A model generated the notes under the pieces. The model worked only from the letters and a program-made list of their open reading frames with translations. It made no database searches and was not told the origin of the DNA. From Rhodobacterales bacterium (GTDB taxonomy: Bacteria; Pseudomonadota; Alphaproteobacteria; Rhodobacterales; Rhodobacteraceae): DNA of 64,000 nucleotides. The translations under genes were made by a program, and so were the position numbers. Shown piece by piece: positions 5,323 through 31,178 of this stretch. The DNA lies in NCBI GenBank assembly GCA_038324445.1, contig JBBQHZ010000003.1, positions 2,106-66,105 on the forward strand. The letters are read 5' to 3'. The stretch's first letter is position 1. Each line of letters starts with the position of its first letter.

Positions 5323-5354
5323 ACCAAACCACCCCCTCCTCGCGCCGTTTGCGC

Positions 5355-5371
5355 AGCAGTGCTTGCGCCAA
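5355..5371 (-). promoter_or_regulatory. Candidate sigma54 (-24/-12) promoter for the nucleoside hydrolase operon
   Basis: TTGGCGCAAGCACTGCT: GG-N10-GC spacing, close to TGGCAC-N5-TTGC. Confidence 0.45.
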
Positions 5372-5451
5372 TTGCCACTTTTTTAGTCAGACGGCGCTAA
5401 TGTTCGCATCCGCAGCGTTTCCCCCGATGACTCGACAAATTTTTCGCCTAG

Positions 5452-5464
5452 GATTGGGCCAATC
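5452..5464. promoter_or_regulatory. Palindrome just upstream of the deaminase start, possible operator
   Basis: GATTGG-G-CCAATC, 9 nt before ATG 5474. Confidence 0.3.
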
Positions 5465-5473
5465 GGGGGCGAC

Positions 5474-6766: not shown

Positions 6767-6805
6767 ACACCCCGACAAACCGACACCAACAAGCGAGGAA
6801 TCCCA

Positions 6806-7789: not shown

Positions 7790-7800
7790 GCGCCTGTCTG

Positions 7801-12647: not shown

Positions 12648-12693
12648 GGTCGCAGCCTGCGCAAAACGACCCCACCCCTCAGTGCATCCACCC

Positions 12694-13218
12694 TCACCCC
12701 GCAGGCGACCAGAGCGCGTCGGGGTTGGCGCGAGTCACGGCCATGCCGGTCGGATAGCTGACCAGCTCCAGCTGCATGCCCCACGGTGCGCGGAAGTAGA
12801 CCCAGGTCAGGCCTTCGGTAGGCCCTCCCGCCATGGTGGTCGGCTCCCCCTGAACCTCGACGCCATGTGCCTTGAGGTGCGAAACAGCTGCGTCCATGTT
12901 GTCGACCACGAAGCCCAGATGGGCCGCGCCGACGTCGCTGTTTGGCGGCGGAACCTGCGCGGCCCCGTCGAGGGAATATTCGAACAGCTCGAAGGCCGGG
13001 CCGTTCTTGCAGCGCAGCATGCGAAGCGTCTTTATGACCGCGCGCGGATGCACGCCCAGATGCACCGCCATCCAGTCGTCATCCGCCACGAAAGGCCCGA
13101 TCTCGAACACCAGGGTGCAGCCGATCACATCGACAAAGAAGCGTGTCGCGGCCTCCATGTCCGGAACGGTGAAGCCGACGTGATCGGTGCCGCTGAGGCC
13201 CGGCAGCCCGCCGCTCAT
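12694..13218 (-). CDS. VOC/glyoxalase-family metalloenzyme
   Basis: DHVGFTV..FELFEY..AHLGFVV..QLELV (H/E/H/E ligands); start MSGGLPG overlaps upstream stop. Confidence 0.85.
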   Translation of the reverse strand: MSGGLPGLSGTDHVGFTVPDMEAATRFFVDVIGCTLVFEIGPFVADDDWMAVHLGVHPRAVIKTLRMLRCKNGPAFELFEYSLDGAAQVPPPNSDVGAAHLGFVVDNMDAAVSHLKAHGVEVQGEPTTMAGGPTEGLTWVYFRAPWGMQLELVSYPTGMAVTRANPDALWSPAG

Positions 13219-13526
13219 CTGGTCGAGACCGGGTCGCAGACCATCGTCATCAGGCGCAGCTTCTGCAACTCGAACACCTTGTCCTTCACCTCGGCAAAGG
13301 CGGCCAGATGCGGTAGTTCTATGTGCTTGTCCCACTCGGCCCGGTCCGTCCAGTTCTCGTAGAAGGTGAACTCGGCCGGATCGTCATTGTCCTGATGCAG
13401 CCAGTATTCGACGCAGCCGGGTTCGGCCCGCGTCGGGTCGATCAGGCCGGTCAGGAAGGCGCGGGTTTCCTCGATCTGCCCATCTATGGCGCGCAGATGG
13501 GCGATGACGGTCAGTTGCTTGCTCAT
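13215..13526 (-). CDS. ABM-family putative quinol monooxygenase
   Basis: TRAEPGCVEY..FTFYENW..HIELPHL. Confidence 0.85.
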   Translation of the reverse strand: MSKQLTVIAHLRAIDGQIEETRAFLTGLIDPTRAEPGCVEYWLHQDNDDPAEFTFYENWTDRAEWDKHIELPHLAAFAEVKDKVFELQKLRLMTMVCDPVSTR

Positions 13527-13549
13527 GTCTCTGGTCTCCTCCGTTGAAC

Positions 13550-14611
13550 TCAGGTGTCGGCGCGGGCCTCGGCCATCACGGCCACAAGGCGGGCCTCGTT
13601 TTGCAGGCCGGGGGGCACCAGCCCGGCCTCGATATCGCGGGCGATCTCGACCACGCGGCGGTTCACCGGGGCGTCGCGGCCCACGGCGGCCAGCCCGTCG
13701 ATGACGATGCCGTGGACCTCGTCCACCTCGGCACGGCGGCCCTTGCGCCAATCCTGAAGCGAGCAGGTCAGCGTGTCGGCCATGGAATAGGTCGTCAGCA
13801 CCATGTCGAGGATTTCGTCAACGTAGCGGTCGGGGTGGGTGCTGATCCCGTCGGGCATCCCGATGATCGGCATGATGGTGGCCCCGTCGGCCAGCGCGGC
13901 CTGCATCGCTTCGTATCCGGCGGCGCGCATCACCTGCAACATGTCCGGGCGGCGCGCGGCGTCGTTGAGGGCGGCGTTGATGATCGCCGAGGGCACAAGT
14001 TCGGCGGCATTCACCACCAGTTTCATCCACTTGGCCGAGCGGATGTCGTCCACCACCTCCACATGGCCCGACACCCGCAAAAGGTCGGCCACCGCCTCCA
14101 CCCTGCCCTGCTGTTCGGGATCAAGCGCTCCCATGGCGAACCACGAACTGTCGTGGTCGTTCTGGCGGTTGGTGAAGCCGGGCTCCCACATGTTCGAGGC
14201 GATCTCGATCACCGCGCCGATGGTCCGTTCGCGGCCGACGATGGCGGCGATATCTTCGTGGGTCATGCCGTTTTGCAGACCCACGACAAAGCCATCCTTG
14301 GCCAATACCGGCCTTATCATCTCGACAGCCCAGCGGGTGTCATAGGCCTTGACCACTAGAAAGACCAAATCGAAGGCCTGCTTGATCTCGGCAATCTCGC
14401 ACAGGTGTAGGGCCTTGACCGGCGTATGCAGAACGCGGGTCGGCATGTTCACTGTCAGGCCATGGGTGCGCATCGCCTCTACATGGGCGGGCCATTGGTC
14501 GATGAAGGTCACGTCATGCCCCGCCAGCGCGAAATCCGCGGCGATGGACGCGCCCTGCGCCCCGGTTCCGAGGAAGGCGATGCGCGGATTGGTGTGGGTG
14601 CGAGGGGTCAA
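13550..14611 (-). CDS. Ketopantoate reductase (PanE/ApbA)-like oxidoreductase
   Basis: GTGAQG, VKAYD, LQNG, KWMKLVVN, SLQD..RRAEVD; TTG start with GGAG SD. Confidence 0.8.
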   Translation of the reverse strand: MTPRTHTNPRIAFLGTGAQGASIAADFALAGHDVTFIDQWPAHVEAMRTHGLTVNMPTRVLHTPVKALHLCEIAEIKQAFDLVFLVVKAYDTRWAVEMIRPVLAKDGFVVGLQNGMTHEDIAAIVGRERTIGAVIEIASNMWEPGFTNRQNDHDSSWFAMGALDPEQQGRVEAVADLLRVSGHVEVVDDIRSAKWMKLVVNAAELVPSAIINAALNDAARRPDMLQVMRAAGYEAMQAALADGATIMPIIGMPDGISTHPDRYVDEILDMVLTTYSMADTLTCSLQDWRKGRRAEVDEVHGIVIDGLAAVGRDAPVNRRVVEIARDIEAGLVPPGLQNEARLVAVMAEARADT

Positions 14612-14644
14612 GTCAGTGCTCCGATAGGGGGATTGGGCCGCGTG

Positions 14645-15430
14645 TCATTGCATGATCATCCCGCCGTCGATCATCAGGCATTGGCCCGTCATGTAAGCCG
14701 AGGCAGGCGACAGCAGGAAATCGACGGTGCCGGCGACATCCTCGGGCAGCGAGACGCGGCCAAGCGGGATGCCGGCGGCATAATCCTTGATCGCCTGTCC
14801 CGGCTCGGAAATGGCGCCCATCTCCAGCAGGTCACGATCCAGCCCGATCCACAGTTCGGTATCGACGATGCCAGGGCCAAAGGCGTTGACGGTGATACCA
14901 TGGGGCGCCAGTGTCTTGGCCGCCGCCTGCGTCAGGCTGATGACCGATGCCTTGCTGGCGCAATAGGGCGCAAAATCCCCGAACCCCGCGCGCCCGGCCA
15001 TGGAGGCGGTGCTGATGATCCGGCCCTTGTGGCCAGAAGCGATCATGGCTTTGCCCGCCTCCTGCATGCCGATCAGGACGCCGAGGCCGTTGACGGCCAT
15101 GATCTGGGTCCAGTTATCCTCGGTCGCTTCCAGAAACGGCATCGGGCGGTTGAACCCCGCGTTGTTGACCATACCGTGCAGGAAGCCGTAGGCACCTTCG
15201 CAGGCAGCAATGGCGGCCTTGACGCTGGCACGGTCGGTGACGTTGACGCGGCAGAACATCGCCCGCCCACCCGACGCCTCGATGGCTGTGGCGGCCTTTT
15301 GGCCCTCAGTCGCGTCGATATCGGCGATCACCACGCCATAGCCGGTGCGCGCCGCGTGCTGCGCGATGGCAAGGCCGATGCCGCGCGCGGCACCCGTGAC
15401 GATCACGCCACCCATGTTGTCATTCGTCAT
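14645..15430 (-). CDS. Classical SDR oxidoreductase (polyol/acetoin dehydrogenase-like)
   Basis: TGAARGIG, NNAG, YCASK, PGIVDT. Confidence 0.9.
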   Translation of the reverse strand: MTNDNMGGVIVTGAARGIGLAIAQHAARTGYGVVIADIDATEGQKAATAIEASGGRAMFCRVNVTDRASVKAAIAACEGAYGFLHGMVNNAGFNRPMPFLEATEDNWTQIMAVNGLGVLIGMQEAGKAMIASGHKGRIISTASMAGRAGFGDFAPYCASKASVISLTQAAAKTLAPHGITVNAFGPGIVDTELWIGLDRDLLEMGAISEPGQAIKDYAAGIPLGRVSLPEDVAGTVDFLLSPASAYMTGQCLMIDGGMIMQ

Positions 15431-15457
15431 CTGTTGGCTCCTCCCTCTGGATGCAGA

Positions 15458-16315
15458 TCAATCCACCTTGTGCAGGATGAAATCATAAGCCGAGCGCCAC
15501 TTGGTCCGGCCCGCCTCGACCGGATCAAACCGGGCGATCAGCGAGGCCTTCACACCGAAGACCGCGTCGGATGTCAGATAGGCATCGCCCGCCACAAAGG
15601 TGTGTGTGGTGACCGTGTTGTAGCCAGCGGCGCTGACGATGAAGTGCATGTGCGCGGGGCGATACGGATGCCGCCCCAGATGCCGCAGAAACTGGCCTAC
15701 CGGGCCATCGTCGGGGATCGGATAGGACACCGGTTTGATCCCCTCGAACCAGTAGCGGCCATCGGCGCCGGTGGTGAAGATGCCCCGGTTGTTGTGGCGC
15801 GGCTGCACATCGGGCTGCTGCACGTCGTAAAAGCCATCCTCGTTGTCGGACCAGACATCGATGGTCGCGCCCGCTATAGATGCGCCGTCCAGATCGCGGA
15901 CGATGCCCTCGAACAGGCAGGTCTCGACCCCGCCCTGCAACGTTATGTTGGTCCCCATCGGATAATGCGGCACGCCCGCCACATGGAACGGCCCCATCAC
16001 GGTGTTCTCCGTCGCACCCGAGGGGCGGCGGTTGTTGATCGCATCGACCAGCATCGATGCGCCCAGAACATCCGACAGCAAGATGAACTCTTGCCGGTTA
16101 TCGTCGCATATCTGTCCGGTGCGGGTCAGGAAACCGATGGCAAGCGCCCACTCCGCCTGCGTCAGTTCCACGTCCTTGATGAAGGCATGCAGGTGCCGAA
16201 CGAGGCTGGCCGCGACATCGGACAGACGCCCGTCGACGCCCGTGCCCATGCGCGCGTTGACCGCCTCGACCGAGCCGGTTTCGGTGAAATAATCGATGCT
16301 CGTGGGATCGGTCAT
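15458..16315 (-). CDS. Intradiol ring-cleavage dioxygenase (hydroxyquinol 1,2-dioxygenase-like)
   Basis: QEFILLSDVLG, GPFH, Fe ligands GFYD / SYPIP / RPAHMH. Confidence 0.88.
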   Translation of the reverse strand: MTDPTSIDYFTETGSVEAVNARMGTGVDGRLSDVAASLVRHLHAFIKDVELTQAEWALAIGFLTRTGQICDDNRQEFILLSDVLGASMLVDAINNRRPSGATENTVMGPFHVAGVPHYPMGTNITLQGGVETCLFEGIVRDLDGASIAGATIDVWSDNEDGFYDVQQPDVQPRHNNRGIFTTGADGRYWFEGIKPVSYPIPDDGPVGQFLRHLGRHPYRPAHMHFIVSAAGYNTVTTHTFVAGDAYLTSDAVFGVKASLIARFDPVEAGRTKWRSAYDFILHKVD

Positions 16316-16440
16316 GGGCACTTCTTTCCTGTCATCGGTTGCTTGGCCGCATCCCGCCAATGGATCGGCGTGGCCTGCGGCGAGGTGTCGAGCCGAAGGC
16401 TCGCCCGGATCTGCGTGGCGGCACCAACGGATGTGGTCAT
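16312..16440 (-). CDS. Candidate 42-aa small ORF or gene remnant
   Basis: GAGGGGGGAGAG immediately before ATG; stop overlaps the dioxygenase start (ATGA). Confidence 0.25.
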   Translation of the reverse strand: MTTSVGAATQIRASLRLDTSPQATPIHWRDAAKQPMTGKKCP

Positions 16441-16485
16441 CTCTCCCCCCTCACTCTCTTCGCCTTTCGTGCGGCGCATGCCACC

Positions 16486-19017
16486 TCAGTCCCCGGTCCG
16501 ACGGCGGGCGGTCGAATAGATCAGCGCCGCCGCAAGGATCAGGAGCCCTTGGAATCCGTATTGGAACGTCTGGGACAGGCCGAGGAACGACACCGCATTC
16601 AGCACCTCGGTCAATAAAAGCGCCCCCAGAACCGTGCCGATGAAGGTGCCTCGCCCGCCGCGCAGGCTGGTGCCGCCCAAGACCACCGCCGTGATGCTGG
16701 ACAGCGTGTAGTTCACCCCCTGCGCCGGATCGCCCACGCCGATCTGCGCCATCAGCATGATCGCCCCGAGCGCAGTCAGCAGCGACACGGTCACGTAACC
16801 GGCGATGAAAGTCCGATTAAGCCGAACGCCGATCCGACGGGCGGATTCCTCGTTCGAGCCGACCGCGCGCACCTGCCAGCCGGGCCGCAACCGGCGCAGG
16901 CCGATCTCGCCCGCGATTGCCAGTGCCACCAGAACGACGAAGGCGATCGGAACAGGACCCACGCGATAAGTGAGCGTGTCGATGACACTAAAGGCGATGT
17001 AGCCGCCCGGTCCGTCGCGCAGCACGAAGCTGAGGCCCTGAAGGCCGATGAACATGGCAAGTGTCGCCGCGATGGGCGTGAAATTGGCAAAGCGGATCAG
17101 GCAGCCATTGATCAGCCCGACGAGGATTGCCGCCACGAACATCAGCGCAAAGCCGGCCGCCATGGTCGCGGTCGAGCTGCCGTCGATCACGAAGAACGAC
17201 CCGATCACCACCAGAAACCCTGCCAACGGGCCAACCGACAGATCGATCCCGCCCATCAGCAGCGCCACGGTCTGGCCCAGCGCGATGAATCCCAGCGCAG
17301 TGGCGAGGATCAGGATATTCGAGACATTGAAGGCCGACAGGTAGTTGTCGTTCTGGCCAAAGACATATAGCGCCAGCGCCACGATCACGAGGGTCAGGGG
17401 CACCACGGTTGCATTGTCGGACTGGACGAAATGCCGGATCCGGTCGCCGAGCCGCCTCGGCGCATCCGCCCGTTCGCCTGCATGGTGGGCGTGGGTTTCC
17501 GCCTCGACCGCCGCGCCGACGATCCGCGCCTCGGTAATGGCGTCCCCGCGCAGGGCTTCAACGACCCGCCCGCGCGACAGGACGATGACCACATCGCACA
17601 GGCCCTGCAACTCGGCCGCATCGGAAGAGTTGACGATGACCGGCGTGCCGTTGCCCGAGACTTCGCGCAGGATGCGATAGATCTCGAACCTCGCACCCAC
17701 GTCGACGCCCTGCGTCGGCTCGTCAGCGACGATGAAGCCGGGCTCGGACAGGAGCGCGCGGGACATCACCACTTTTTGCTGGTTGCCGCCCGATAGCGAT
17801 AGGATCTTCGCATCGAGGCTGGCGGCCTTCACGGCAAGCGCGCCGAATACCTCCTGCACCTGTGCCACTTCGCGGCGGCGGTTAAGGATCCCCGCCGTGG
17901 CGAATTTCTCCAGCGCGGCGAAGGTCGCGTTCTCGCGGATAGTCAGATCGGCAGCAAGGCCTTCGGAGTGCCGGTCCGAGGGCATGAAGGCGCCTTCGGC
18001 CTTCAATTCTTTGGGGGCAAGCGTGCGCCCGCCCAGCGTGACGGCGCCCGTGGCCGGCAACAGCCCGGCCAGCGCCCGCATCAATTCGGCCTGTCCGTTA
18101 CCCTCCACACCCGCGACGCCAAGGATCTGGCCGCGCCCGACCTCGAACCCGACATCGGTGAATTTGGCCCCCGTCAGGCCCGTTACCGTGAAGTTCACAG
18201 GCGGCGCGGCATCGGGGCATTTCGGTGGGAAGGCGGACGCCAGCGTGCGCCCGACAATCATGTTGAGAAGATCCTGATTGCTCACATCCGCCACCATGGC
18301 CGTGCCACGGTGGCGCCCGTCGCGGAGCACGGTAACGCGGTCCGCGATCCGGCGTAGTTCGGCCAGGCGATGGGTGATGTAGATGACGGCCGTGCCCTTG
18401 GCCTTGAGGGCGCGAATGCGGAGGAACAGCATTTCCGTGGCGTCTTGATCCAACGAGGCTGTCGGCTCGTCCAGGATCAGCACCTTGGGGTTGGTCGCCA
18501 ACGCCTTGGCCAGTTCCAGCAGGTGCTTTTGCGCAACCGTCAACGTATCGCCGCGCGCACCCAGCGACACGTTCAGCCCGACATTGTCCAGCAGCGCGCG
18601 ACCGATGCCTTGCACCGACCCGCCCTCGAAGATCGCTTTCGGGACGGCAACGCGCAGGTTCTCCAGCACCGTCATGTCGGGCAGGATCGCGGGGTGCTGA
18701 TAGGAAATCGAAATCCCTAGCGCCGAGGTGATCTTGGGGCTGAGCCCGCGAACCGGTTGCCCGTCGACCTCGATCTGGCCCGTATTCGGCTGCAACACCC
18801 CGGTGATGATGTTCATCAATGTCGATTTGCCGGCGCCGTTCTCGCCCAGGATGGCATGAACCTCGCCGGGATAGAATTCGGCGCTGACATGGGAAAGCGC
18901 GTGGACCGCCCCGAAAGACTTGGACACATCGGTCAACCGGATCACCGCCTTGCCGGGAGCCGGGGCGTGGGTGGGTTCCGCGTTCGTCGCGGTGGAATGG
19001 AGCTGGACCACTTGCAT
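16486..19017 (-). CDS. Fused CUT2 sugar ABC ATPase + permease
   Basis: GENGAGKST, LILDEPT, LSGGNQQK, then an RbsC-like TM domain (GIDLSVG) in one 843-aa frame. Confidence 0.88.
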   Translation of the reverse strand: MQVVQLHSTATNAEPTHAPAPGKAVIRLTDVSKSFGAVHALSHVSAEFYPGEVHAILGENGAGKSTLMNIITGVLQPNTGQIEVDGQPVRGLSPKITSALGISISYQHPAILPDMTVLENLRVAVPKAIFEGGSVQGIGRALLDNVGLNVSLGARGDTLTVAQKHLLELAKALATNPKVLILDEPTASLDQDATEMLFLRIRALKAKGTAVIYITHRLAELRRIADRVTVLRDGRHRGTAMVADVSNQDLLNMIVGRTLASAFPPKCPDAAPPVNFTVTGLTGAKFTDVGFEVGRGQILGVAGVEGNGQAELMRALAGLLPATGAVTLGGRTLAPKELKAEGAFMPSDRHSEGLAADLTIRENATFAALEKFATAGILNRRREVAQVQEVFGALAVKAASLDAKILSLSGGNQQKVVMSRALLSEPGFIVADEPTQGVDVGARFEIYRILREVSGNGTPVIVNSSDAAELQGLCDVVIVLSRGRVVEALRGDAITEARIVGAAVEAETHAHHAGERADAPRRLGDRIRHFVQSDNATVVPLTLVIVALALYVFGQNDNYLSAFNVSNILILATALGFIALGQTVALLMGGIDLSVGPLAGFLVVIGSFFVIDGSSTATMAAGFALMFVAAILVGLINGCLIRFANFTPIAATLAMFIGLQGLSFVLRDGPGGYIAFSVIDTLTYRVGPVPIAFVVLVALAIAGEIGLRRLRPGWQVRAVGSNEESARRIGVRLNRTFIAGYVTVSLLTALGAIMLMAQIGVGDPAQGVNYTLSSITAVVLGGTSLRGGRGTFIGTVLGALLLTEVLNAVSFLGLSQTFQYGFQGLLILAAALIYSTARRRTGD

Positions 19018-19119
19018 CTTTCCGTCTCGGTCAGTGGGGCGGCAGTGCGTGTCGCGCGGTTCGAGTTATATGGCCCCGGGCAGGGTGTTCCCGCCCGGAG
19101 CCACGATGTTCCGGCAGGA

Positions 19120-21205: not shown

Positions 21206-21264
21206 CTGGGCGGACGCTCTCGGGGTTGCAGGGTCGGGTTAACGGGCTCGGGATGAAGGGGAGA

Positions 21265-22245
21265 TCAGGCGATTTCGAGGGTGACCTTCACGGCCTTGGT
21301 CGGGTCCTTGCCGAGGGCGAGCGCTGTCAGCGCATCGTCGAGGCCGTAAGTGTGGGTCTGGATCGGTGACAGATCGAGGCCTGTGCGCTCCAGAAACCGG
21401 ATCGCGGCGGGCCAGACGCCGGGCGAGCCGATGCAGCCCCGAACGGTGAGGTTCTTGATCTGGATCTTGCCCAGATCGAGCGTGATCTTGTTGCCGATGC
21501 TGATGCCTACCATGGATACGCAGCCATCATCGCGGGTGTAATCGAACACATTGGCAAGGGACGCGGGATGCCCGGCGCATTCCACCGTCAGATCGGCGCC
21601 GCCCTTCGTCATCTCCCGCACTGCTTCCACGGGATCACCGGCGTTGGGGTCGATGGTTGCGTCGGCCCCCAGTCGCATGGCGATATCGCGGCGCAGTGGA
21701 ACGGGATCTACCACGATCACCCGCGCGCCCATGCCGATGGCGGCGGCCGCCGTGACCAGCCCGATGGTGCCACCGCCCGAGACGACCACGGTCTGCGAGG
21801 CATCAACGCCGCCATGGCGCAGCACCGCGTAATAACCACAGGTAAACGGCTCGATCAGGGCGCCTTTGGCGTCGTCGACCGCATCGGGCAGCGTGTGCAG
21901 CCATTCCGGCCGCGCAGCGAAGAATTCGCGATCCGCGCCATCCATGGAAAATCCGAAATGGTGGATGCGCTCGGGCGTATTGATGACGCATTCGCCCACC
22001 ACGCGGTCGCCTTCCTTCAGGCCCTTCACATGGCGGCCCACCTGTACCACCTCGCCCACCCATTCGTGGCCGGGGGTGACGGGATAGGAGATCGGGATGA
22101 TGTATTGGCCAGCCAGAAGCTCGTAATCGGAATGACAGATGCCGACCCGGCGCGAGCGGATAAGCACTTCGCCATCGCCCATCGACGGCGTCTGAACCTG
22201 CGCCACGACGGGTTTGTTCGGTTCGTCGAAGATCAGTGCTTTCAT
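21265..22245 (-). CDS. Zn-dependent MDR alcohol/polyol dehydrogenase
   Basis: GICHSD, PGHE, GGGTIG; start MKALIFDE. Confidence 0.88.
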   Translation of the reverse strand: MKALIFDEPNKPVVAQVQTPSMGDGEVLIRSRRVGICHSDYELLAGQYIIPISYPVTPGHEWVGEVVQVGRHVKGLKEGDRVVGECVINTPERIHHFGFSMDGADREFFAARPEWLHTLPDAVDDAKGALIEPFTCGYYAVLRHGGVDASQTVVVSGGGTIGLVTAAAAIGMGARVIVVDPVPLRRDIAMRLGADATIDPNAGDPVEAVREMTKGGADLTVECAGHPASLANVFDYTRDDGCVSMVGISIGNKITLDLGKIQIKNLTVRGCIGSPGVWPAAIRFLERTGLDLSPIQTHTYGLDDALTALALGKDPTKAVKVTLEIA

Positions 22246-23282
22246 GACGCTTTCTCCAGATTGTCCATGGCCGGTCGGGCCACCGTTTCGATCTGCCCGC
22301 TGAGCGCAGATTTGAAGACGGCTTCCAGCAGGGCGATGTTGTTGATCAGATGCTCGCCGGTGACGGCATAGGCCTCCTTGCCGCGCACGGCGCGCGCGAA
22401 GGACACGAGGTTGTCCTTGACCGGTTCGGCCTTGCCGATCTCTTGCGTCTGGATCGGGCCGCCCGCCATGGCCGAGGTGACGATCCAGCCATCGGGCGCC
22501 TCCACATGGGCCTTGTCGCGGATGTCGATCCAGCCCTTCGATCCGAACACGGCGAAGCGCGAGATGAACGGGTTGGCCAGCGAGGCCGAAACATAGGACG
22601 TGCCGCCGCCCGCGAATTTCACAAAAGCCGCCACCGTGTCGCCCTGCGGCAGATCGGTGGACAGTTGCTCGCTGATGCACAGCACGCTTTCGGCCCGGCC
22701 CAGCAGGCGGACGGACAGGTCCAGCAGATGAATGCCTGTGGCCGTCATGCCCCCCGCAGGTGCCTGATCCGCCTTCAACCGCCAGTTGCTCCGGTCGAGC
22801 GAGACGAATTTGTCGTGGCTGAAATTGGCCTCGATCTGGTGGATGCGACCCAACTCGCCCGCATCGGCACGGGCCAGCATGTCGGCAATCGGTGGTTCCC
22901 ACCGGCGCTCGTGGCCCATGCCAAGGATCAGCCTGGCATCGGCGCAGAGCGCTACGGAGCGCGCGGCCTCCGCCGCCGTCAGGGCAAGGGGCTTTTCGCA
23001 GAAGATGTGCTTGCCCGCCGCCACGGCCTGCGCGATCTGGGCGGTGTGCAGGGAATGGGGCGTGGCCAGAACAACGGCTTCCACCTCCGGATCGGCCAGC
23101 GCATCGGCGTAATTGGCGCTGAGCTGGATGCCCTTGTCCGCGCAAAGGTCGCGCACGGAATCAAGGTTCGGCTCTACCGCGCGCACCACGGTGATGTCAT
23201 TCGGGGCGGCCTGCAACACTGCCAGCATCTTCTGGCCCCACCAACCCAGGCCGACCAAGGCGATTTTCACCGGACCCGACAT
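22242..23282 (-). CDS. Gfo/Idh/MocA oxidoreductase
   Basis: GLGWWG, ATPHSLH, CEKP, GIHLLD. Confidence 0.9.
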   Translation of the reverse strand: MSGPVKIALVGLGWWGQKMLAVLQAAPNDITVVRAVEPNLDSVRDLCADKGIQLSANYADALADPEVEAVVLATPHSLHTAQIAQAVAAGKHIFCEKPLALTAAEAARSVALCADARLILGMGHERRWEPPIADMLARADAGELGRIHQIEANFSHDKFVSLDRSNWRLKADQAPAGGMTATGIHLLDLSVRLLGRAESVLCISEQLSTDLPQGDTVAAFVKFAGGGTSYVSASLANPFISRFAVFGSKGWIDIRDKAHVEAPDGWIVTSAMAGGPIQTQEIGKAEPVKDNLVSFARAVRGKEAYAVTGEHLINNIALLEAVFKSALSGQIETVARPAMDNLEKAS

Positions 23283-23566
23283 CAGCGATTGTCCACGCGT
23301 TTGGAGAAGGGCCGGATCGACACGGTCTTCCAGAGTTCGGCCTTGGCAAAGGGATCGTTGCGGTTGAACGCCTCGACCTCGGCGAGGCTGTCGGCCTCCA
23401 GCACAAAGCAACTGCCGATCATCGTCGCGTTGTCATCGGCCAGAAGCGGGCCCGAGATCAGCGTCTTCACGCTTGCGGCTGCGAGGTAGGCCTTGTGCGC
23501 ATCGTAATGGGCCAGCCGCTTGTCGACGGCACCGTCATGGTCGAGGCAATGGATCACATAGTGCAT
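23282..23566 (-). CDS. YciI-family protein
   Basis: 95 aa; R..H..H, SGPLL, GSCFVL, DPF motifs. Confidence 0.85.
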   Translation of the reverse strand: MHYVIHCLDHDGAVDKRLAHYDAHKAYLAAASVKTLISGPLLADDNATMIGSCFVLEADSLAEVEAFNRNDPFAKAELWKTVSIRPFSKRVDNR

Positions 23567-23576
23567 GGGTCTGTCC

Positions 23577-24647
23577 TCAGGCCGGGATGATCTTGCGGGC
23601 ACGGAGTTCGTCGAACACGTCCGTGAAGCTTTCGCGGGTCGACTGATAGGCGGCGAAGCCCAGCTTGCGGCTGTTGGTCATGTCGGTGAAGCATTCCAGG
23701 TCTCGGCCCAGATCGGCGTCGCTGTGCCACCACGACGCCAGTTTGCCCACGGGAATGTCCTGCAACCCGTGTTTGGCGACGATGTCCTTCCAGATCGCGT
23801 CGGCCCCTGCCATCTGCCCTTCAAGGGGCGTCGGGTGACCGGGATATTCCGCGGCCGCGATCCCGAAGTAATCGGCAATCTGCTGCCACAGCCATGTCCA
23901 GCGGAAGATATCGCCGTTGGCGGTGTTGAAGGGAGTGTTCGCCGCTTCGGGCGTGGTAGCGGCCCAGTGCAACTGCTCTGCCAACAAGCGCGCATCGGTG
24001 ACATCCGTCGCAGCGTTGTATTGCTGGGGAGAGCCGGGATAGACGAATGGCATCCCCGTGTGCTTGCAGATCGAGGCATAGACGGCCAGCGTCACCGCCA
24101 TGTTCATGTAGTTGCCGATGACAAAGCCGATCATCGAATGGGGCCTATGGACGGACCAGGTGAAGCCGCGCTTCGCTGCCATCTCGAACAGCACGTCCTC
24201 CTGCGCGTAGTAGAAATTCGGCCCCGGCAAGCGTGGGCTGCTTTCCAGGAACGGCGTGTAGGGCTTCACCTTGGCGTAGTCGTCGAACGAGCCGAGGTAG
24301 TGCTTGAGGCCCGTCACCAGTGCGGCGTGTTTCACCGGCGCGTGCGCGATCCCGTCAAAGAGGTTGCGCACCATCAGGGCGTTGACGCGGACATTCTCGT
24401 CCTCGCTCGCCTGCCGTGCCCAGAGGCAGAAGAACACATGGGTGACGTCCCCTGCCGCTGCCAGCGCGGCTTTGCTACTGGCGGCATCGGTCAGATCAGC
24501 GGCGATGTGGCGATCGGACCAGTCGAGGTCGGCATCGCTGCGCGACACGGTCACAACCGTCCAGCCAAGGCTCTTGAGGTGGCGTCCGGCATAGCTGCCT
24601 GACAATCCCGTGGCCCCGACGATCAAGGCGATGTTCTGGTCCGTCAT
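23577..24647 (-). CDS. PRISE-like (progesterone 5-beta-reductase/iridoid synthase-type) extended SDR
   Basis: GATGLSG, TGLKHY, NFYYAQED, WSVHRP, FNTANGD. Confidence 0.85.
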   Translation of the reverse strand: MTDQNIALIVGATGLSGSYAGRHLKSLGWTVVTVSRSDADLDWSDRHIAADLTDAASSKAALAAAGDVTHVFFCLWARQASEDENVRVNALMVRNLFDGIAHAPVKHAALVTGLKHYLGSFDDYAKVKPYTPFLESSPRLPGPNFYYAQEDVLFEMAAKRGFTWSVHRPHSMIGFVIGNYMNMAVTLAVYASICKHTGMPFVYPGSPQQYNAATDVTDARLLAEQLHWAATTPEAANTPFNTANGDIFRWTWLWQQIADYFGIAAAEYPGHPTPLEGQMAGADAIWKDIVAKHGLQDIPVGKLASWWHSDADLGRDLECFTDMTNSRKLGFAAYQSTRESFTDVFDELRARKIIPA

Positions 24648-24684
24648 TGGGTGAGGTGTCCGTTCATTTCTTCAGGAAAGGGAA

Positions 24685-25752
24685 TCAGGTGGTTACGAGG
24701 ATCTTCAGGTGTTCCCCTGCGGGGTCGAGAAGCGCCTCGAACCCTTTGGCGACCACATCCTCGGCGGCGATGCGGGCGGTGATGACCTTCTCGACCGGGA
24801 AAATCCCGGCCTCGATCATCCGGGCGATGCGAGGCCAGATCTGCGTCGGATAGCACCATGTCGCTTCGACCGTGATGTCCTTGAGCGCCCAGAGCATCGC
24901 GTCGACGCTTGCGGGTTTCATGTGCAGGCCCACCTGAACGACCTTGCCCTGTCGGCGCACGGCCTCAGCGCAGGCATTGAGCGACCGTTCGAGGCCGACA
25001 CATTCAAGCGCCACGTCCACACCCACGCCCTCTTCGGTCAGATCACCGACCATGGTCTGCAACTGCCCGGTGGCGGGGTCGACGACATGGGCGTAGGGCG
25101 CAATCTCGGCGATGATGCGGCGGCGGTTCGGGTTGGGTTCCGACACGATGATCGTGGTTGCACCGGCTGCTTTCGCTGCCAGAACCGTCAGGGCCCCGAT
25201 GGGCCCCGCGCCCGATACCAGCACGGTCGATCCCGCCTCCACCCGGCCCCGGTCCACGCCATAGAGCGCGACGGCGGCAGGCTCGATCATCGCCGCCTGC
25301 TCGTCGGTGATCCCGTCCGGCACCGGCTGCGCGTTGTAATCCTTGATGACTGCCTTCTCGCCCATGCCGCCCCAGGCCCAGCTGAGGCCGACACATCCCA
25401 GAGAGGGCGACAGGTGATAGAGCCCGCGCTTGCCGTAATAGTCGTTGCGTGGTGCAACCAGCGGCTGGATCGAGATCCGGTCGCCCGCCTTGAGGGTGCC
25501 GACGGCGTCCCCCACCGCCAGCACACGGGCAGAGAACTCGTGTCCGAGGATCTGCGGATTGCTCGCGCCGGTATAGGCATGCGGTGCGCTTGGCGTGACG
25601 ATGGGGCCGGCGATGTATTCATGGAGGTCAGTGCCGCAAATGCCGGTGACGATCGGCGCGATCAGCACGTCATCGGGCAGCAGCGAGCCCGAGGGTTCTG
25701 CCACTTCTTCTACACGAATATCCTTGGCCCCGTGAAAACGTACCGCTTTCAA
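24685..25752 (-). CDS. MDR dehydrogenase, 2,3-butanediol/polyol dehydrogenase-like
   Basis: GICGTDLHEY, GHEFS, GAGPIG; TTG start behind GGGAGGGA. Confidence 0.85.
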   Translation of the reverse strand: MKAVRFHGAKDIRVEEVAEPSGSLLPDDVLIAPIVTGICGTDLHEYIAGPIVTPSAPHAYTGASNPQILGHEFSARVLAVGDAVGTLKAGDRISIQPLVAPRNDYYGKRGLYHLSPSLGCVGLSWAWGGMGEKAVIKDYNAQPVPDGITDEQAAMIEPAAVALYGVDRGRVEAGSTVLVSGAGPIGALTVLAAKAAGATTIIVSEPNPNRRRIIAEIAPYAHVVDPATGQLQTMVGDLTEEGVGVDVALECVGLERSLNACAEAVRRQGKVVQVGLHMKPASVDAMLWALKDITVEATWCYPTQIWPRIARMIEAGIFPVEKVITARIAAEDVVAKGFEALLDPAGEHLKILVTT

Positions 25753-25878
25753 TGGATCGTCCCTCCCCATTGCCCGGCGCGCAAAGGACGCGCCGCACCG
25801 TCGATCCTGACGCGCGGTCGAACCGCGTCTCCCCGTCTGGATAGACTCGATTCGTAGCAAACCCGCAGCGCCTTGGGT

Positions 25879-25930
25879 TGCCAAATTTCTCCGCTTCGGA
25901 AAAATTTGGCAGAACGCCTCCGAAGTGGAA
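25879..25930. promoter_or_regulatory. Palindromic operator region between divergent promoters
   Basis: TGCCAAATTT-c-TCCG-ctt-CGGA-a-AAATTTGGCA, plus a second inverted copy of the core (TTCCACTTCGGAG on the minus strand, 25918-25930). Confidence 0.6.
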
Positions 25931-25966
25931 ACATAATATGGCGCAAGGCCACAGGGAGGCAGGGCG

Positions 25967-26902
25967 ATGATCCGGACCGAGGATTCGATGACGGATGCGA
26001 GTGTTGCAGCGGGGGCAGGAAGCGCTCGGGTCGGCTGGATCGGGGCTGGAAAAATGGGCTTTCCCATGGCCTTGAACCTACTGGCCAAAGGAGTTCCCGT
26101 GACCGTCAGCGACCCGGTGGCCGAGCAGGTGGCGGCGCTGGTTGCGGCTGGGGCGACTCAGGCTGCTGCGCTATCGGACCAAGCTGCGTCGGACATCGTT
26201 TTCGCCACCCTGCCGCACGACGCGGCCCTTCTTGCCGTGGTCGAGGGCGACGGGAAAGCGCCGGGCCTGGCCGAAGTCCTGCGTCCCGGCGCGATCTTCG
26301 TGGAAATGAGCACGGTTTCGCCGACCTGTTCCGTCATGGTGGCCGAACGATTGGAAAAGACAGGCATTTCCTACATCCGCGCGCCGCTTTCTGGCAGCAC
26401 GACGATGGCCGAGACGGCATCCCTGACCGTGCTGGCATCGGGCGACGCTGCGGCCTGGGCGCGGGCGTTGCCGCATATCAAGCTGATGTCCGCGAGACAA
26501 TTCCTGGTCGGCGCAGGGGACGAAGCGCGATACATGAAACTGGTGCTCAACACGCTGGTCGGCGCTTCGTCCGCGATTTTGGCAGAGGCTCTGGCTCTTG
26601 GCGCAAGCGGTGGTCTCACGCGCGACACGATGATGGAGGTGATCGGCGCCAGCGCCGTCGCCTCGCCCCTGTTTGGCTACAAGGCCAAGGCGGTGGTCGA
26701 GGCGGACTATACCGCCGCCTTCACGGTTACGCAGATGATCAAGGATTTCACCCTGATCCTTGACGCCGCCCGCCGGAACGGGGTGACGCTGCCAACCACG
26801 GACTTGATCCTTGGCCTTTATCATGCTGCATCTGAGTCAGGCCTCGACAACGAAGATTTCTTCTCTTTGGTGAAATGGCAGCAAGACTTGTCCAACAGGT
26901 AG
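25967..26902 (+). CDS. 3-hydroxyisobutyrate/6-phosphogluconate dehydrogenase-family oxidoreductase
   Basis: GAGKMG, EMSTVSP, APLSGS, YMKLVLN. Confidence 0.88.
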   Translation: MIRTEDSMTDASVAAGAGSARVGWIGAGKMGFPMALNLLAKGVPVTVSDPVAEQVAALVAAGATQAAALSDQAASDIVFATLPHDAALLAVVEGDGKAPGLAEVLRPGAIFVEMSTVSPTCSVMVAERLEKTGISYIRAPLSGSTTMAETASLTVLASGDAAAWARALPHIKLMSARQFLVGAGDEARYMKLVLNTLVGASSAILAEALALGASGGLTRDTMMEVIGASAVASPLFGYKAKAVVEADYTAAFTVTQMIKDFTLILDAARRNGVTLPTTDLILGLYHAASESGLDNEDFFSLVKWQQDLSNR

Positions 26903-26908
26903 AATGCC

Positions 26909-28636
26909 GTGAACCATCAAGAACCGGTGCAACCGCAACAGGCCGAACTGACCAGCCACGAGTTGTCGCGGATCGTGGATTTTCTGCGCCGCCTCCGGGA
27001 CCCCTTTGACGCCCGGATGCCCGGCGCAAAACCGGATGTGTTCTTCAACATCCTCCTCGAGTTGATCGATGCGCGGCTGCACCTGAACCCGATCGACAAA
27101 TCTGGCCTGATCACGCTGGCCAAAGTGCCCTACAGCACCGGCAACCGGATGATCACCAAGATGATCGAGGATGGTCAGATCCAGCAGGTTCCGCGCGGCA
27201 AGGGGCTAAAGACCCACTTTCTGGAGCCGACCGAGGCGACGCTGAGTGCCTTCATGGCCTATGCGGGCCATGTGAAGGGCCACATGGCCAAGACCTTCGG
27301 CCTTCGCAAGGGCAGCGAGACCAACGAGTATTACTTCGGCGGCAGCTACTTCGCCTCGCAGATCATCTCGCCCATCCGGGGCGAGGATATCGCCGAGATG
27401 GGACTGGGCGATATCAAGTTCCTGCTCAACGATGACAATTACTTCATCGCGATGCGGAACATGTGGGCCGATTTCCGCAACGATTTCGGCCGTCGCAGCA
27501 GTTTTGATCTGCACCAGTTGCCCGACCTCTACGCCAAGGCCCGCAAGACCTTTGCTGGGGATGCGCCCCTATATGACGTTGTTGCCATCAACTTTCCCTG
27601 GCTGGGCGAATTCGCAGAACGCGGCGATCTGGCCCCCCTCGACGCGCTGATGACAGATGCCGCGATCAATCCGCTGGATTTCCATCCCTCAGTCTGGGGC
27701 ACGGGCAACTGGAAGGGCACGCAATACGGCATCCCGCTCTATTGCACGATCGAGATCCTCGCCGCGCGGCAAGACCTGTTCGAGGCCGCGGACATCGCCT
27801 ATCCCAAGACCTTCGACGAAACCATCGCCGCCGCCCGCGCCTTCCACGATCCGGCCAAGGAATTTTACGGCATCGCCTGGAACGGCCAGCGCGGCATGCC
27901 GATTGCCAATTCGTTCATGTTCTTTCTGGCTGCCTGCCGCCAGACTGTCATCGACATGCCCCTGCGCAATCAGGAAAGCTGGAGCTTCGACACCTTCGAG
28001 ACTCTCAAGCTGCGGATCAATACCGAGGATGCGCTGGAGGTGATCGACTACATGAAGCAACTGGCCGAGGTGGCCCCGCCCGACATCTCAACCATGGATT
28101 GGGAACGGCGCATCCACTACTTCATGTCCGGTCAGGTCTCGATGACCTATTGCTGGACCATGCGCGCGGCGAGGTTCGAGCATGAACTGAGCTCGCGCGT
28201 TGCCCGGCGCGTCGCCTATCTGCCGCCGCCGTCCCGCAGGATCCGGCGCGTTTCTGCCCCGGTGGGGGGCTTCTTGCTGACCATCCCGTCCTGTGTCGAT
28301 CCGGCGCGCCAGAAGCAGATCATCAACGCCATCGCGTGGATGGTGTCGCCCGAGGCGATGAAGGCGCATGTGAAGAACGGCTTCCCGGTCGCACCCCGCT
28401 TTTCGGTCTGCGCCGACCCCGAGGCTTTGGCCTCTTCGCCGATCGTCAGCATGGTCGACAGGATGGCGCGCAAGAACGAGTTGGTGACATGGGCCCGCCC
28501 CCCTGTGCCGCACTTCAACCTGATCGAACGGACGCTGGGCATCGAGATTCACGAGGCCGTCTTCAACGGCAAACCCGCGCAGCAGGCGCTTGTGGACGCC
28601 GAAAACAGCATACTTAGCCAAGTTCGATCCGGTTGA
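26909..28636 (+). CDS. N-terminal winged-helix domain fused to a family-1 (CUT1) solute-binding domain; probable cytoplasmic one-component regulator
   Basis: No signal peptide; KVPYSTGNRMITKMIEDGQIQQVP helix/wing pattern; C-terminal YDVVAINFPWLGEFA, QYGIPLY, FYGIAW SBP motifs. Confidence 0.75.
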   Translation: MNHQEPVQPQQAELTSHELSRIVDFLRRLRDPFDARMPGAKPDVFFNILLELIDARLHLNPIDKSGLITLAKVPYSTGNRMITKMIEDGQIQQVPRGKGLKTHFLEPTEATLSAFMAYAGHVKGHMAKTFGLRKGSETNEYYFGGSYFASQIISPIRGEDIAEMGLGDIKFLLNDDNYFIAMRNMWADFRNDFGRRSSFDLHQLPDLYAKARKTFAGDAPLYDVVAINFPWLGEFAERGDLAPLDALMTDAAINPLDFHPSVWGTGNWKGTQYGIPLYCTIEILAARQDLFEAADIAYPKTFDETIAAARAFHDPAKEFYGIAWNGQRGMPIANSFMFFLAACRQTVIDMPLRNQESWSFDTFETLKLRINTEDALEVIDYMKQLAEVAPPDISTMDWERRIHYFMSGQVSMTYCWTMRAARFEHELSSRVARRVAYLPPPSRRIRRVSAPVGGFLLTIPSCVDPARQKQIINAIAWMVSPEAMKAHVKNGFPVAPRFSVCADPEALASSPIVSMVDRMARKNELVTWARPPVPHFNLIERTLGIEIHEAVFNGKPAQQALVDAENSILSQVRSG

Positions 28637-28696
28637 AACGGCGGGCGACGGCGTCGGCACCGGGGAAAGATGCTTTCGGATCACGCCAGCGGCGCG

Positions 28697-30924: not shown

Positions 30925-31178
30925 GGGTGTCCTCAATTCTTGTGTCTGGCCGGAAGGGTCGGCGCAGGGTGTCCTGCCCCGATCCCGTCAGACCTTTGCA
31001 ATGGCCTGGATCATGGTGACGATCCTATCAGCGTCTCTCACAACGACAGCTTCTTTCTTGCCGATGCGCAAGGGTCGGGGCGAAAGTGGTCCCTGCATCG
31101 GGAAGGGTCACCCCGCCCCAAAGTTGCGCAGTCGCAAACTGGTTGATTGCGACAGGAATGCTCGGTAGAGGCCGAAAC

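Follow-up and report, generated by a model that had tools for sequence, protein, structure and literature searches.

Why should a sugar-type importer and a series of oxidoreductases be encoded in the same run of genes as an enzyme that opens aromatic rings? The question is raised by a locus at positions 12694-28636 of a 64,000-nucleotide stretch, hereafter the window, of a Rhodobacterales bacterium (GenBank assembly GCA_038324445.1, contig JBBQHZ010000003.1, positions 2,106 to 66,105 of the forward strand); it consists of 13 co-oriented genes on the minus strand (12694-25770) and of a divergent pair, coding for a dehydrogenase and a candidate regulator. The answer proposed here, which we hold with moderate confidence, is that this is an inducible catabolic locus, in which an ATP-binding cassette (ABC) importer and the redox enzymes would turn a ring-shaped polyol into hydroxyquinol, which would then be cleaved.

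Association of Uptake, Redox and Ring-Cleavage Genes

The gene arrangement is far beyond chance, the same genes being found together in 33 other loci. Relatives were collected using the intradiol dioxygenase as query, with one genome per prokaryote species; this provided 80 loci, including actinobacterial ones (L060, L066 and L075), and 33 of the 80 carry the cluster, with a 10-gene core common to these species-level genomes. The same gene membership is kept through three gene orders, i.e., the one of the window, that of Rhizobium sp. WL3 and that of an Acidibrevibacterium metagenome-assembled genome (MAG). In the maximum-likelihood tree built using 77 dioxygenases, the 32 cluster-linked copies form a single clade (support 99/84, with no shuffle as low), which is nested among classical hydroxyquinol dioxygenases adjacent to a reductase; this topology suggests that the dioxygenase was recruited into the cluster once. 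Thus, co-conservation in 33 loci, persistence through three gene orders and the single dioxygenase clade bear out the link between uptake/redox and ring cleavage that had been proposed from the letters of the window alone (the original prediction), and a functional tie of the import and redox genes to hydroxyquinol cleavage is well supported by these comparative data.

That a sugar-uptake and oxidation unit and an unrelated ring-cleavage unit merely happen to be adjacent is, by the same data, highly improbable. The 170-nt gap between transporter and dioxygenase and the separate classical aromatic loci of the same genome could be read in this sense; however, both halves are co-conserved in the 33 loci, the cluster-linked dioxygenases are monophyletic, and the association outlasts reshuffling. 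Indeed, Rhizobium sp. WL3 has its dioxygenase, together with a maleylacetate reductase, inserted between the upper enzymes and the transporter, while in Acidibrevibacterium the dioxygenase lies beside MDR1, across the regulator pair.

Genes of the Locus

Genes were called by a survey of open reading frames (ORFs) guided by GC content at third codon positions (GC3), together with Pfam, NCBIfam and PDB comparisons, and starts were trimmed to plausible ones. The features are as follows, the minus-strand genes being given from the first to the last of the run.

24685-25770, minus strand: MDR1, Zn-dependent, resembling polyol/vicinal-diol dehydrogenases, first gene of the operon (ADH_N and ADH_zinc_N)
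23577-24647, minus strand: PRISE-type extended SDR (PF22917, 77.2 bits against a cut-off of 27)
23282-23566, minus strand: YciI-family protein, TftG-like (PF03795, 60.9 bits)
22242-23282, minus strand: Gfo/Idh/MocA oxidoreductase, its start overlapping the YciI stop by 1 nt (GFO_IDH_MocA N and C domains)
21265-22245, minus strand: MDR2, Zn-dependent, sorbitol-dehydrogenase-like, with a 4-nt overlap with the Gfo gene (ADH_N, ADH_zinc_N and Glu_dehyd_C)
20168-21205, minus strand: ABC permease 1 (BPD_transp_2)
19120-20187, minus strand: periplasmic binding protein with a signal peptide, highly divergent (Peripla_BP_4, 84 bits)
16486-19017, minus strand: fusion of a tandem ABC ATPase and permease 2, 843 aa (two ABC_tran domains and BPD_transp_2 at residues 565-830)
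16316-16485, minus strand: spacer of 170 nt, the slot of maleylacetate reductase in relatives
15458-16315, minus strand: intradiol dioxygenase of the hydroxyquinol 1,2-dioxygenase type (PF04444, Dioxygenase_N, 108 bits; PF00775, Dioxygenase_C, 119 bits)
14645-15430, minus strand: classical SDR, acetoin-reductase-like, accessory (adh_short, 181 bits)
13550-14611, minus strand: PanE/ApbA-like protein of the 2-oxoacid reductase family (ApbA and ApbA_C)
13215-13526, minus strand: ABM, dimeric alpha+beta barrel of the 'quinol monooxygenase' type, accessory (PF03992, 61.5 bits)
12694-13218, minus strand: VOC protein (glyoxalase/dioxygenase fold), last gene, with a 4-nt overlap with ABM (Glyoxalase, 54 bits)
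25883-25907, no strand assigned: palindromic candidate operator AAATTTCTCCGCTTCGGAAAAATTT in the divergent promoter region
25967-26902, plus strand: HIBADH-like protein (beta-hydroxyacid dehydrogenase family), first of the divergent pair (NAD_binding_2 and NAD_binding_11)
26909-28636, plus strand: candidate regulator of 575 aa, a MarR-like winged helix fused to a family-1 solute-binding domain (SBP_bac_1/SBP_bac_8 at residues 205-511)

Intergenic distances in the minus-strand run range from -20 to +170 nt; from MDR1 to VOC they are 37, 10, -1, -4, 59, -20, 102, 170, 27, 33, 23 and -4 nt. The gene families, their order and their strand had all been anticipated in the original prediction and were recovered by the Pfam scans, as were the divergent 3-hydroxyacid dehydrogenase and fused regulator, which correspond to the plus-strand HIBADH-like gene and to the 575-aa SBP_bac_1 protein. 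The same scans agreed with it in finding no kinase, aldolase, glycosidase or ring-hydroxylating oxygenase (Rieske or flavin type) in the 13-gene run, and no Fe-ADH maleylacetate reductase was found there. In addition, profile scans of the locus gave no decarboxylase, demethylase, hydrolase or thiamine diphosphate (ThDP) enzyme, and none of its enzymes reached an NCBIfam equivalog cut-off.

Among the relatives, each gene was counted only in loci long enough for its position to be visible. MDR1 is present in 24/24 relatives, PRISE, YciI, Gfo/Idh/MocA and MDR2 in 26/26 each, permease 1 in 27/28, the ATPase-permease fusion in 32/32 (with a length of 843 aa in Mesorhizobium and 841 aa in Acidibrevibacterium) and the binding protein in 28/30. 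The PanE-like gene occurs in all 29 relatives and always after the dioxygenase, directly or behind the SDR, with a reductase and a Dabb protein intervening in Rhizobium sp. WL3; the HIBADH-like gene and the regulator adjoin the cluster in 10/10 relatives examined. The gene list that had been proposed as one unit holds therefore for the core and not for the SDR (8/30), the ABM at the window's position (4/29) and the window's VOC type (4/28), which are variable accessories. In 15 of 25 others the last gene of the cluster codes for a VOC of a second type, with 39% identity, and in Loktanella ABM and VOC are relocated behind the regulator. The slot of ABM is occupied in other relatives by a Dabb-family alpha+beta barrel (Rhizobium sp. 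WL3) or by a Met-Pro protein of about 110 aa, conceivably tautomerase-like, which follows the PanE-like gene in 21/29 (for example, L033, 11948-12280) and matched no Pfam family.

The version closest to that of the window belongs to Rhodobacterales bacterium HKCCE3408 (L003), where the order is the same, including SDR, ABM and VOC, and the reductase is present. The genes of Rhizobium sp. WL3 are arranged as MDR1, YciI, Gfo, MDR2, PRISE, dioxygenase, maleylacetate reductase, Dabb protein and PanE, with the transporter and VOC after them. In the Acidibrevibacterium MAG (L097, 5889-7593) the gene calls split the dioxygenase into an N-domain piece of 76 aa and a C-domain piece of 193 aa, which are separated by small ORFs; this is due either to decay of the copy or to an error of assembly.

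Most carriers belong to Rhodobacterales (Cypionkella, Tabrizicola, Thioclava, Rhodobacter ruber, Paragemmobacter, Roseivivax, Yoonia, Loktanella and Puniceibacterium), but others are Mesorhizobium xinjiangense, Rhizobiaceae and the Acidibrevibacterium MAG (Acetobacteraceae); thus, the cluster, which had been described as an orphan, is not unique and deserves this name only as being uncharacterised. The co-occurrence analysis that had been proposed as a check showed the core, dioxygenase included, to be conserved as a whole in the 33 loci. The cluster is located on plasmids or chromids in cultured Loktanella salsilacus, in several Rhizobium species and in a Sinorhizobium, and for the cultured strains, which are harmless, it is directly testable. 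Searches of metagenomes with the PRISE protein retrieved more than 120 distinct clusters at 78% identity or above, while look-ups of the genomic context by exact sequence gave nothing on record. When 401 genomes were sampled evenly over the phylum, two of them belonging to the same genus and 17 to the same family, the binding protein was found in this genome only. Occurrence is thus patchy, yet identity is high across orders (85% for the Mesorhizobium PRISE), which suggests that the cluster spread horizontally.

Ring Cleavage and Lower Pathway

The dioxygenase is composed of an N-terminal helical domain (PF04444) and a C-terminal intradiol domain (PF00775). It scored 414 bits (E 2e-123) with PDB entry 8r2x, a '6-chlorohydroxyquinol-1,2-dioxygenase', and 244 and 242 bits (both about 1e-71) with PnpC and with the Nocardioides hydroxyquinol dioxygenase 1tmx, respectively, against at most 120 bits (1e-34 or weaker) with catechol 1,2-dioxygenases; the catechol and chlorocatechol equivalogs of NCBIfam were matched at 142-163 bits, with cut-offs of 359-404. 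Its SYPIP and RPAHMHF stretches, which hold the Tyr/Tyr/His/His iron ligands in this family, are identical to those of 8r2x in the alignment. Moreover, in Rhizobium, Pannonibacter and Novosphingobium the gene immediately before the orthologue (64-70% identity) codes for a maleylacetate reductase. Since both the bit scores and this adjacency point to hydroxyquinol dioxygenases, the assignment to this type made from the sequence alone stands, and hydroxyquinol as the ring-cleavage substrate is the best-supported single inference on the locus; a more hydroxylated benzene may also be the substrate.

In 22 of the 33 relatives a maleylacetate reductase of the Fe-ADH family is encoded between transporter and dioxygenase, and genes for PcaI (3-oxoadipate CoA-transferase, 13/29) and PcaF (thiolase, 14/26) are found downstream. 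The co-conservation of the dioxygenase with the reductase in most relatives, and with CoA-transferase and thiolase in about half, indicates that the ring-opening end runs from hydroxyquinol to maleylacetate, 3-oxoadipate and central metabolism, a lower pathway that is already textbook. The presence of CoA-transferase and thiolase in relatives also means that the carbon skeleton must end as unsubstituted 3-oxoadipate.

The lack of a maleylacetate reductase, which the original prediction had pointed out, is true of the run in the window, but not of the cluster in general or of the genome, where a copy with 59% identity is present on contig C45. Because HKCCE3408 has the same gene order with the reductase between transporter and dioxygenase, this genome has lost the gene from its cluster; no remnant was detectable in the 170-nt spacer of the window. 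On C45 (22434-25125) the reductase adjoins a LysR regulator, a two-domain VOC dioxygenase and a Peripla_BP_6 binding protein, and on C2 (67114-69731) a second hydroxyquinol-type dioxygenase, 59% identical, adjoins a flavin aromatic-ring hydroxylase; these classical aromatic loci could supply the reductase in trans. A thiolase with 79% identity is coded on contig C69. PRISE was also considered as a stand-in for the missing reductase and was ruled out, as it is present in 26/26 relatives and the reductase is there as well in 22/33.

These same enzymes bear on a different role for the ring-cleavage genes, namely that the carbon of a polyol or sugar goes elsewhere and that dioxygenase, ABM and VOC only clear toxic hydroxyquinol formed spontaneously from labile keto-intermediates. 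Deoxy-inososes and inososes do aromatise readily (PMC11467972), and the cluster in the window is without maleylacetate reductase. However, the locus contains no other enzyme able to cleave C-C bonds (hydrolase, aldolase or ThDP enzyme), and the genes that relatives add in the same transcription direction (the reductase in most, CoA-transferase and thiolase in about half) complete a full assimilatory route; detoxification is therefore quite unlikely.

Enzymes of the Proposed Upper Pathway

The proteins that would act before ring cleavage are NAD(P)-dependent redox enzymes, together with small ones of the eliminase or isomerase type. MDR1 has (R,R)-butanediol dehydrogenase as best PDB match (5e-61), while MDR2 is closest to sorbitol dehydrogenase in the PDB (2e-34) and to IolM, scyllo-inosose 3-dehydrogenase, among the NCBIfam models (165 bits, cut-off 450). 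For the Gfo/Idh/MocA protein the best named NCBIfam model is IolG (110 bits, cut-off 355), and its PDB neighbours include scyllo-inositol dehydrogenase, 1,5-anhydrofructose reductase and dihydrodiol dehydrogenases. The accessory SDR scored 248 bits with the acetoin reductase subfamily (cut-off 304).

The PRISE protein is similar over residues 5-355 to the plant enzyme P5betaR (2v6f, 8.4e-77). Its translation contains VTGLKHYLG, with the Lys, and GPNFYYAQEDVL, which includes GPNFYYAQED, with the Tyr; these correspond to the catalytic motifs of the plant 1,4-enone reductases, xGxKHY for Lys and NFYY for Tyr. A PRISE protein with 82% identity stands alone, with no cluster around it, in the complete genome GCA_016865015.1 (L092, 10001-11071). 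The YciI protein matches best TftG, a 5-chloro-2-hydroxyhydroquinone dehydrochlorinase (4lbh, 1.5e-11), ahead of the generic YciI protein HI0828, and the His of its YDAH and the Asp of its NDPF align with the same residues of 4lbh; TftG, with which YciI had been compared from the start, is indeed the closest solved structure.

The HIBADH-like protein is closest to 2-hydroxymethylglutarate dehydrogenase in the PDB (5e-44), and its gene is next to the regulator also in Mesorhizobium, Rhizobium sp. WL3 and Loktanella. The PanE-like protein scored 142.1 bits with the TIGR00745 subfamily (cut-off 141.35) and 1e-23 with its best PDB match. Both reductases are conserved and no pathway step is assigned to them.

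A distant variant of the cluster, in Bradyrhizobium betae (L059, 6311-17145) and Tardiphaga (L056), shares a late module and has other upper enzymes, namely an amidohydrolase and an FAD-linked oxidase. In B. betae a LysR gene is followed by maleylacetate reductase, amidohydrolase, HIBADH-like protein, hydroxyquinol-type dioxygenase, FAD-linked oxidase, CUT2 importer and YciI; the HIBADH-like protein, directly upstream of the dioxygenase, is 36% identical to that of the window and the YciI protein 54%. This variant is possibly for a nitrogen-containing ring compound. Because YciI and the HIBADH-like protein recur with different upper enzymes, comparison of the two arrangements suggests that they act late, near the aromatic.

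These assignments are compatible with a scheme in four steps. First, Gfo/Idh/MocA, MDR1 and MDR2 would oxidise ring carbinols to ketones; second, beta-eliminations of water, either spontaneous or aided by YciI, VOC and the small alpha+beta-barrel proteins, would aromatise the ring. In a third step, PRISE as an enone reductase and the TftG-like YciI may work as a reduce-then-eliminate pair yielding hydroxyquinol, by removing surplus ring oxygen or by converting an intermediate at the hydroxybenzoquinone level; finally, hydroxyquinol would undergo intradiol cleavage.

Part of the same evidence could be read as import of a compound with its aromatic or quinonoid ring preformed, i.e., a polyhydroxybenzene or hydroxybenzoquinone (for example, a tetrahydroxybenzene or 2,5-dihydroxybenzoquinone), with the reductases and YciI dehydroxylating it reductively and stepwise to hydroxyquinol, in a route resembling the lower tft pathway for 2,4,5-T but having OH in place of Cl. 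The relation of YciI to TftG, the nature of PRISE as a reductase of the C=C bond in enone or quinone-like systems, the label 'putative quinol monooxygenase' carried by ABM in RefSeq relatives and the lack of a dehydratase in the locus are all in keeping with it; so are a transporter subfamily that is not restricted to sugars and the recurrence in Bradyrhizobium of YciI, HIBADH-like protein, dioxygenase, reductase and CUT2-type importer with other upper enzymes. On the other hand, MDR1, MDR2 and Gfo are polyol-dehydrogenase-like, with sp3 carbinols as the substrates of their closest relatives, the regulator has a sensor domain similar to binding proteins for sugars and sorbitol, and such quinones are reactive and, to our knowledge, not known as abundant free nutrients. 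On balance, import of an aromatic is unlikely, and conversion of a ring-shaped polyol is preferred.

Importer and Candidate Substrate

The Peripla_BP_4 binding protein, the BPD_transp_2 permeases and the tandem-ABC ATPase form together a CUT2-type set. The binding protein scored 24-34 bits with the XylF, RbsB and RhaS equivalogs (cut-offs of 337 or more) and 6.5e-08 with its best PDB sequence match; its AlphaFold2 (AF2) model has the fold of ribose-binding protein, with a target-normalised TM-score of 0.7-0.8 and 13-20% identity to the neighbours retrieved by Foldseek. Mesorhizobium ciceri, Aminobacter sp. MSH1 and Rhodococcus ruber have plasmid-borne paralogous transporters with the same three-gene architecture and 37-46% identity of the binding protein, in clusters that do not look like sugar or polyol pathways. 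Therefore, of the original reasoning from a CUT2 importer to a sugar or cyclitol, the transporter type is confirmed, but the conclusion drawn from it is weakened.

The substrate is most likely an unsubstituted, carboxyl-free C6 alicyclic polyol or ketol, given that the locus has no hydroxylase and no C-C-cleaving enzyme other than the dioxygenase, with an upper part made up entirely of NAD(P) dehydrogenases and reductases. Since the end product is unsubstituted 3-oxoadipate and no decarboxylase, demethylase or glycosidase is encoded, a carboxyl-free C6 carbocycle is the simplest compound to enter the route. Candidates would be cyclitols other than myo-inositol, for example a deoxy-inositol (quercitol), a cyclohexanetetrol, a conduritol or an inosose. 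The oxidation product of quercitol, 2-deoxy-scyllo-inosose, aromatises to hydroxyquinol. Moreover, inososes aromatise by double dehydration to tetrahydroxybenzenes (PMC11467972), and reductases interconvert 2-deoxy-scyllo-inosose and quercitols (PMC7348060); this chemistry supports a C6 carbocycle as the substrate.

A polyol is favoured also by the sensor domain, which is nearest to binding proteins with sugar and sorbitol in their PDB names, by the hydroaromatic neighbours of the cluster in Loktanella and apparently in Thioclava, and by the habitats of the carriers (plant surfaces, nodules, tumours, lakes and coastal water), which fit a plant or algal cyclitol. On the Loktanella salsilacus plasmid (L102, 19609-26981) the cluster abuts quinate/shikimate genes and pcaF; the adjoining genes code for shikimate dehydrogenase, a dehydroshikimate-dehydratase-like fusion, a TRAP transporter and a type II dehydroquinase, an arrangement suggestive of a supra-operonic island for nutrients of the hydroaromatic kind. 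Behind the cluster of Thioclava (L009, 12891-17138) there are a GntR-like gene, a TRAP system and an apparent type II dehydroquinase, recognised by eye. As for the common inositol, 10 of 11 carriers, among them the present genome, encode outside the cluster IolD and IolE proteins that score above curated cut-offs, making myo-inositol an unlikely substrate of the cluster.

A substrate that is not carbocyclic has also to be considered, i.e., a sugar or deoxy-sugar oxidised to a dicarbonyl, cyclised by intramolecular aldol reaction to a deoxy-inosose and then aromatised. The CUT2-type importer and the three polyol/sugar dehydrogenases would be in line with such a route, and the Gfo/Idh/MocA fold can hold a tightly bound cofactor for redox-neutral chemistry. 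However, no precedent was found for phosphate-independent carbocyclisation in catabolism, no homologue of sugar-phosphate cyclases is present in the locus, and more unprecedented steps are required than with a cyclitol, so that cyclisation of a sugar is very improbable.

Several observations weigh against the conversion of a cyclitol to hydroxyquinol. We infer the substrate and all the steps of the upper pathway, and no recognised dehydratase of the IolE or QuiC type is present in the locus. In a route that aromatises its substrate one would not expect an enone reductase, except with an over-oxygenated starting compound; besides, the solitary copy mentioned above indicates that PRISE is not confined to this pathway. 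The ligand of the binding protein could not be read from the PDB search, NCBIfam, or AF2 and Foldseek, which returned generic, distant CUT2 neighbours, and the clusters of M. ciceri, Aminobacter sp. MSH1 and R. ruber with related transporters resemble acid-sugar, amide or CoA-dependent pathways. The IolD and IolE of 10/11 carriers make the common inositol unneeded as a substrate. Finally, scans for promoters and terminators over 12000-29000 gave chance-level counts.

Regulation

The 575-aa regulator has no signal peptide and is 75-85% identical in 10/10 relatives tested. Within residues 1-230 no Pfam family was matched at E <= 0.01 and the MarR sequence profile was not reached; however, the AF2 model of residues 1-179 displays a confident H-H-H-H-E-E-H arrangement, with residues 11-132 mostly at pLDDT 75-97, which corresponds to a winged helix flanked by dimerisation helices, and the top 50 Foldseek matches of the N-terminus in the PDB are almost all MarR-family proteins (E about 1e-4, target-normalised TM-score about 0.45-0.55). 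The closest PDB entries to the sensor domain are 5iai, 'Sugar ABC transporter' (4e-33), and the 'Sorbitol' binding protein 4rya.

The 25-bp palindrome at 25883-25907 is unique in the window, and 0/100 shuffles matched it. Ten relatives have palindromes of the form AATTT-n-TCCG-nnn-CGGA-n-AAATT at the equivalent site, upstream of their HIBADH gene; the palindrome of the window overlaps a sigma-70-like match (25878-25905), which is itself at chance level. Because a MarR-like fold and a cytoplasmic solute-binding domain occur together with a conserved palindrome, it is plausible, on the basis of the structural model, that the fusion is a one-component sensor of both divergent promoters; it would sense a polyol-like inducer and control the two promoters through the palindrome.

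Comparison with Known Pathways

Hydroxyquinol is a hub for aromatics that are first hydroxylated by oxygenases. With the hydroxyquinol branch of the beta-ketoadipate pathway, which serves resorcinol, gamma-resorcylate, p-nitrophenol and chlorophenols, the locus shares the dioxygenase and, in most and about half of the relatives, the reductase and the CoA-transferase with thiolase, respectively. All entries into this branch known to us employ a flavin or two-component hydroxylase acting on an aromatic; unlike them, the locus has no hydroxylase, its place being taken by an ABC importer along with five or six oxidoreductases that use NAD(P). In this genome the classical combination of hydroxylase and dioxygenase is separately present, on contig C2.

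The lower tft pathway of Burkholderia cepacia AC1100 is similar in the genetic linkage of a YciI-family eliminase with a hydroxyquinol dioxygenase and, as in most relatives of the cluster, with a maleylacetate reductase; its operon reportedly codes for TftE, a maleylacetate reductase, TftG, a YciI-type dehydrochlorinase, and TftH, a hydroxyquinol dioxygenase. TftG eliminates HCl from 5-chlorohydroxyquinol, giving hydroxybenzoquinone. The present locus, in contrast, is devoid of chlorophenol monooxygenase genes, its YciI has polyol dehydrogenases and PRISE as partners, and the leaving group would presumably be OH and not Cl. A role as dechlorinase was discarded for YciI, because the locus has no flavin monooxygenase to provide the context of a dehydrochlorinase; the protein may be TftG-like in its working only.

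In inositol catabolism (IolG/IolE/IolD, or IolG/IolM/IolN/IolO of Thermotoga) the nearest named models of Gfo and MDR2, as well as the broad CUT2 class, have their counterparts. The scores of both enzymes are far below the cut-offs (110 vs 355 and 165 vs 450 bits), IolE, IolD, IolB, IolC and IolN are missing from the locus, and the ring would be opened by an O2-dependent dioxygenase and not by a ThDP hydrolase. A canonical myo-inositol (iol) operon was ruled out by the IolG score and by the absence of the IolE and IolD families from the locus.

The closest analogue is the quinate/shikimate pathway, in which a dehydrogenase, a dehydroquinase and a dehydroshikimate dehydratase lead to protocatechuate; oxygenase-free aromatisation, intradiol cleavage and 3-oxoadipate would be common to both, and in Loktanella this pathway is a neighbour of the cluster, with a shared pcaF. 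The upper enzymes are, however, non-homologous, no AroQ- or QuiC-type dehydratase is encoded, the proposed product is hydroxyquinol instead of protocatechuate, the substrate would be carboxyl-free, and uptake is by an ABC importer instead of TRAP or MFS transporters. By analogy, the logic may be that of a quinate-type conversion of a hydroaromatic into the beta-ketoadipate pathway, on a different ring and ending at hydroxyquinol. It is conceivable, and we put it forward only tentatively, that the locus represents a second kind of oxygenase-free hydroaromatic pathway, in which a carboxyl-free C6 cyclitol of plants or algae, for example a quercitol or cyclohexanetetrol, would be aromatised by NAD(P)-dependent dehydrogenation and loss of water, with PRISE and YciI as a deoxygenation pair and a MarR/solute-binding fusion as sensor.

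Such an oxygenase-free route to hydroxyquinol, with its enzyme set, is undescribed in the literature found: no pathway linking uptake of the cyclitol or sugar type to hydroxyquinol cleavage was retrieved from open-access and bioRxiv sources, in agreement with the original view that none had been described, while subscription journals could hold one. If confirmed, formation of hydroxyquinol from a non-aromatic polyol by redox and elimination steps only would be a new entry to the beta-ketoadipate network and would account for the use of an unnamed, apparently common nutrient by Rhodobacterales and rhizobia that live with plants and algae.

The window PRISE is bacterial and is placed in a catabolic operon, unlike the plant proteins (P5betaR/VEP1), to which it is similar over the full length and in the motifs with the catalytic Lys and Tyr. 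An alpha-proteobacterial origin is assumed for the VEP1 genes of plants, while what these bacteria themselves use the enzyme for is not known (PMC8778713), and no physiological role of PRISE in bacteria was found in the open-access literature. The locus offers a candidate native role for the alpha-proteobacterial enzyme; were the proposed pathway true, PRISE of these bacteria and a YciI protein would receive their first native physiological roles. More in general, testable roles are provided for little-known bacterial families, i.e., PRISE, YciI, PanE-like proteins, small alpha+beta barrels and the fusion of MarR with a binding protein, and enzymes that aromatise and deoxygenate cyclitols would be of interest for the production of benzenoid chemicals from sugars.

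Flanking Regions

To the right of the regulator (28697-30936) the minus strand codes for a third MDR, with about 30% identity to MDR1, and for a class I/II aminotransferase, and the cobalamin/cobalt genes CbtA and CobS come next; the genes at 28697-30936 are not kept with the cluster in relatives. The left flank (2234-12647) is an unrelated nucleoside/nucleobase locus with an ABC importer of its own, which comprises a nucleoside hydrolase, an amidohydrolase, a Bmp-type binding protein and an amidase; the final gene of this flank and the VOC gene are convergent, their stops being 46 nt apart.

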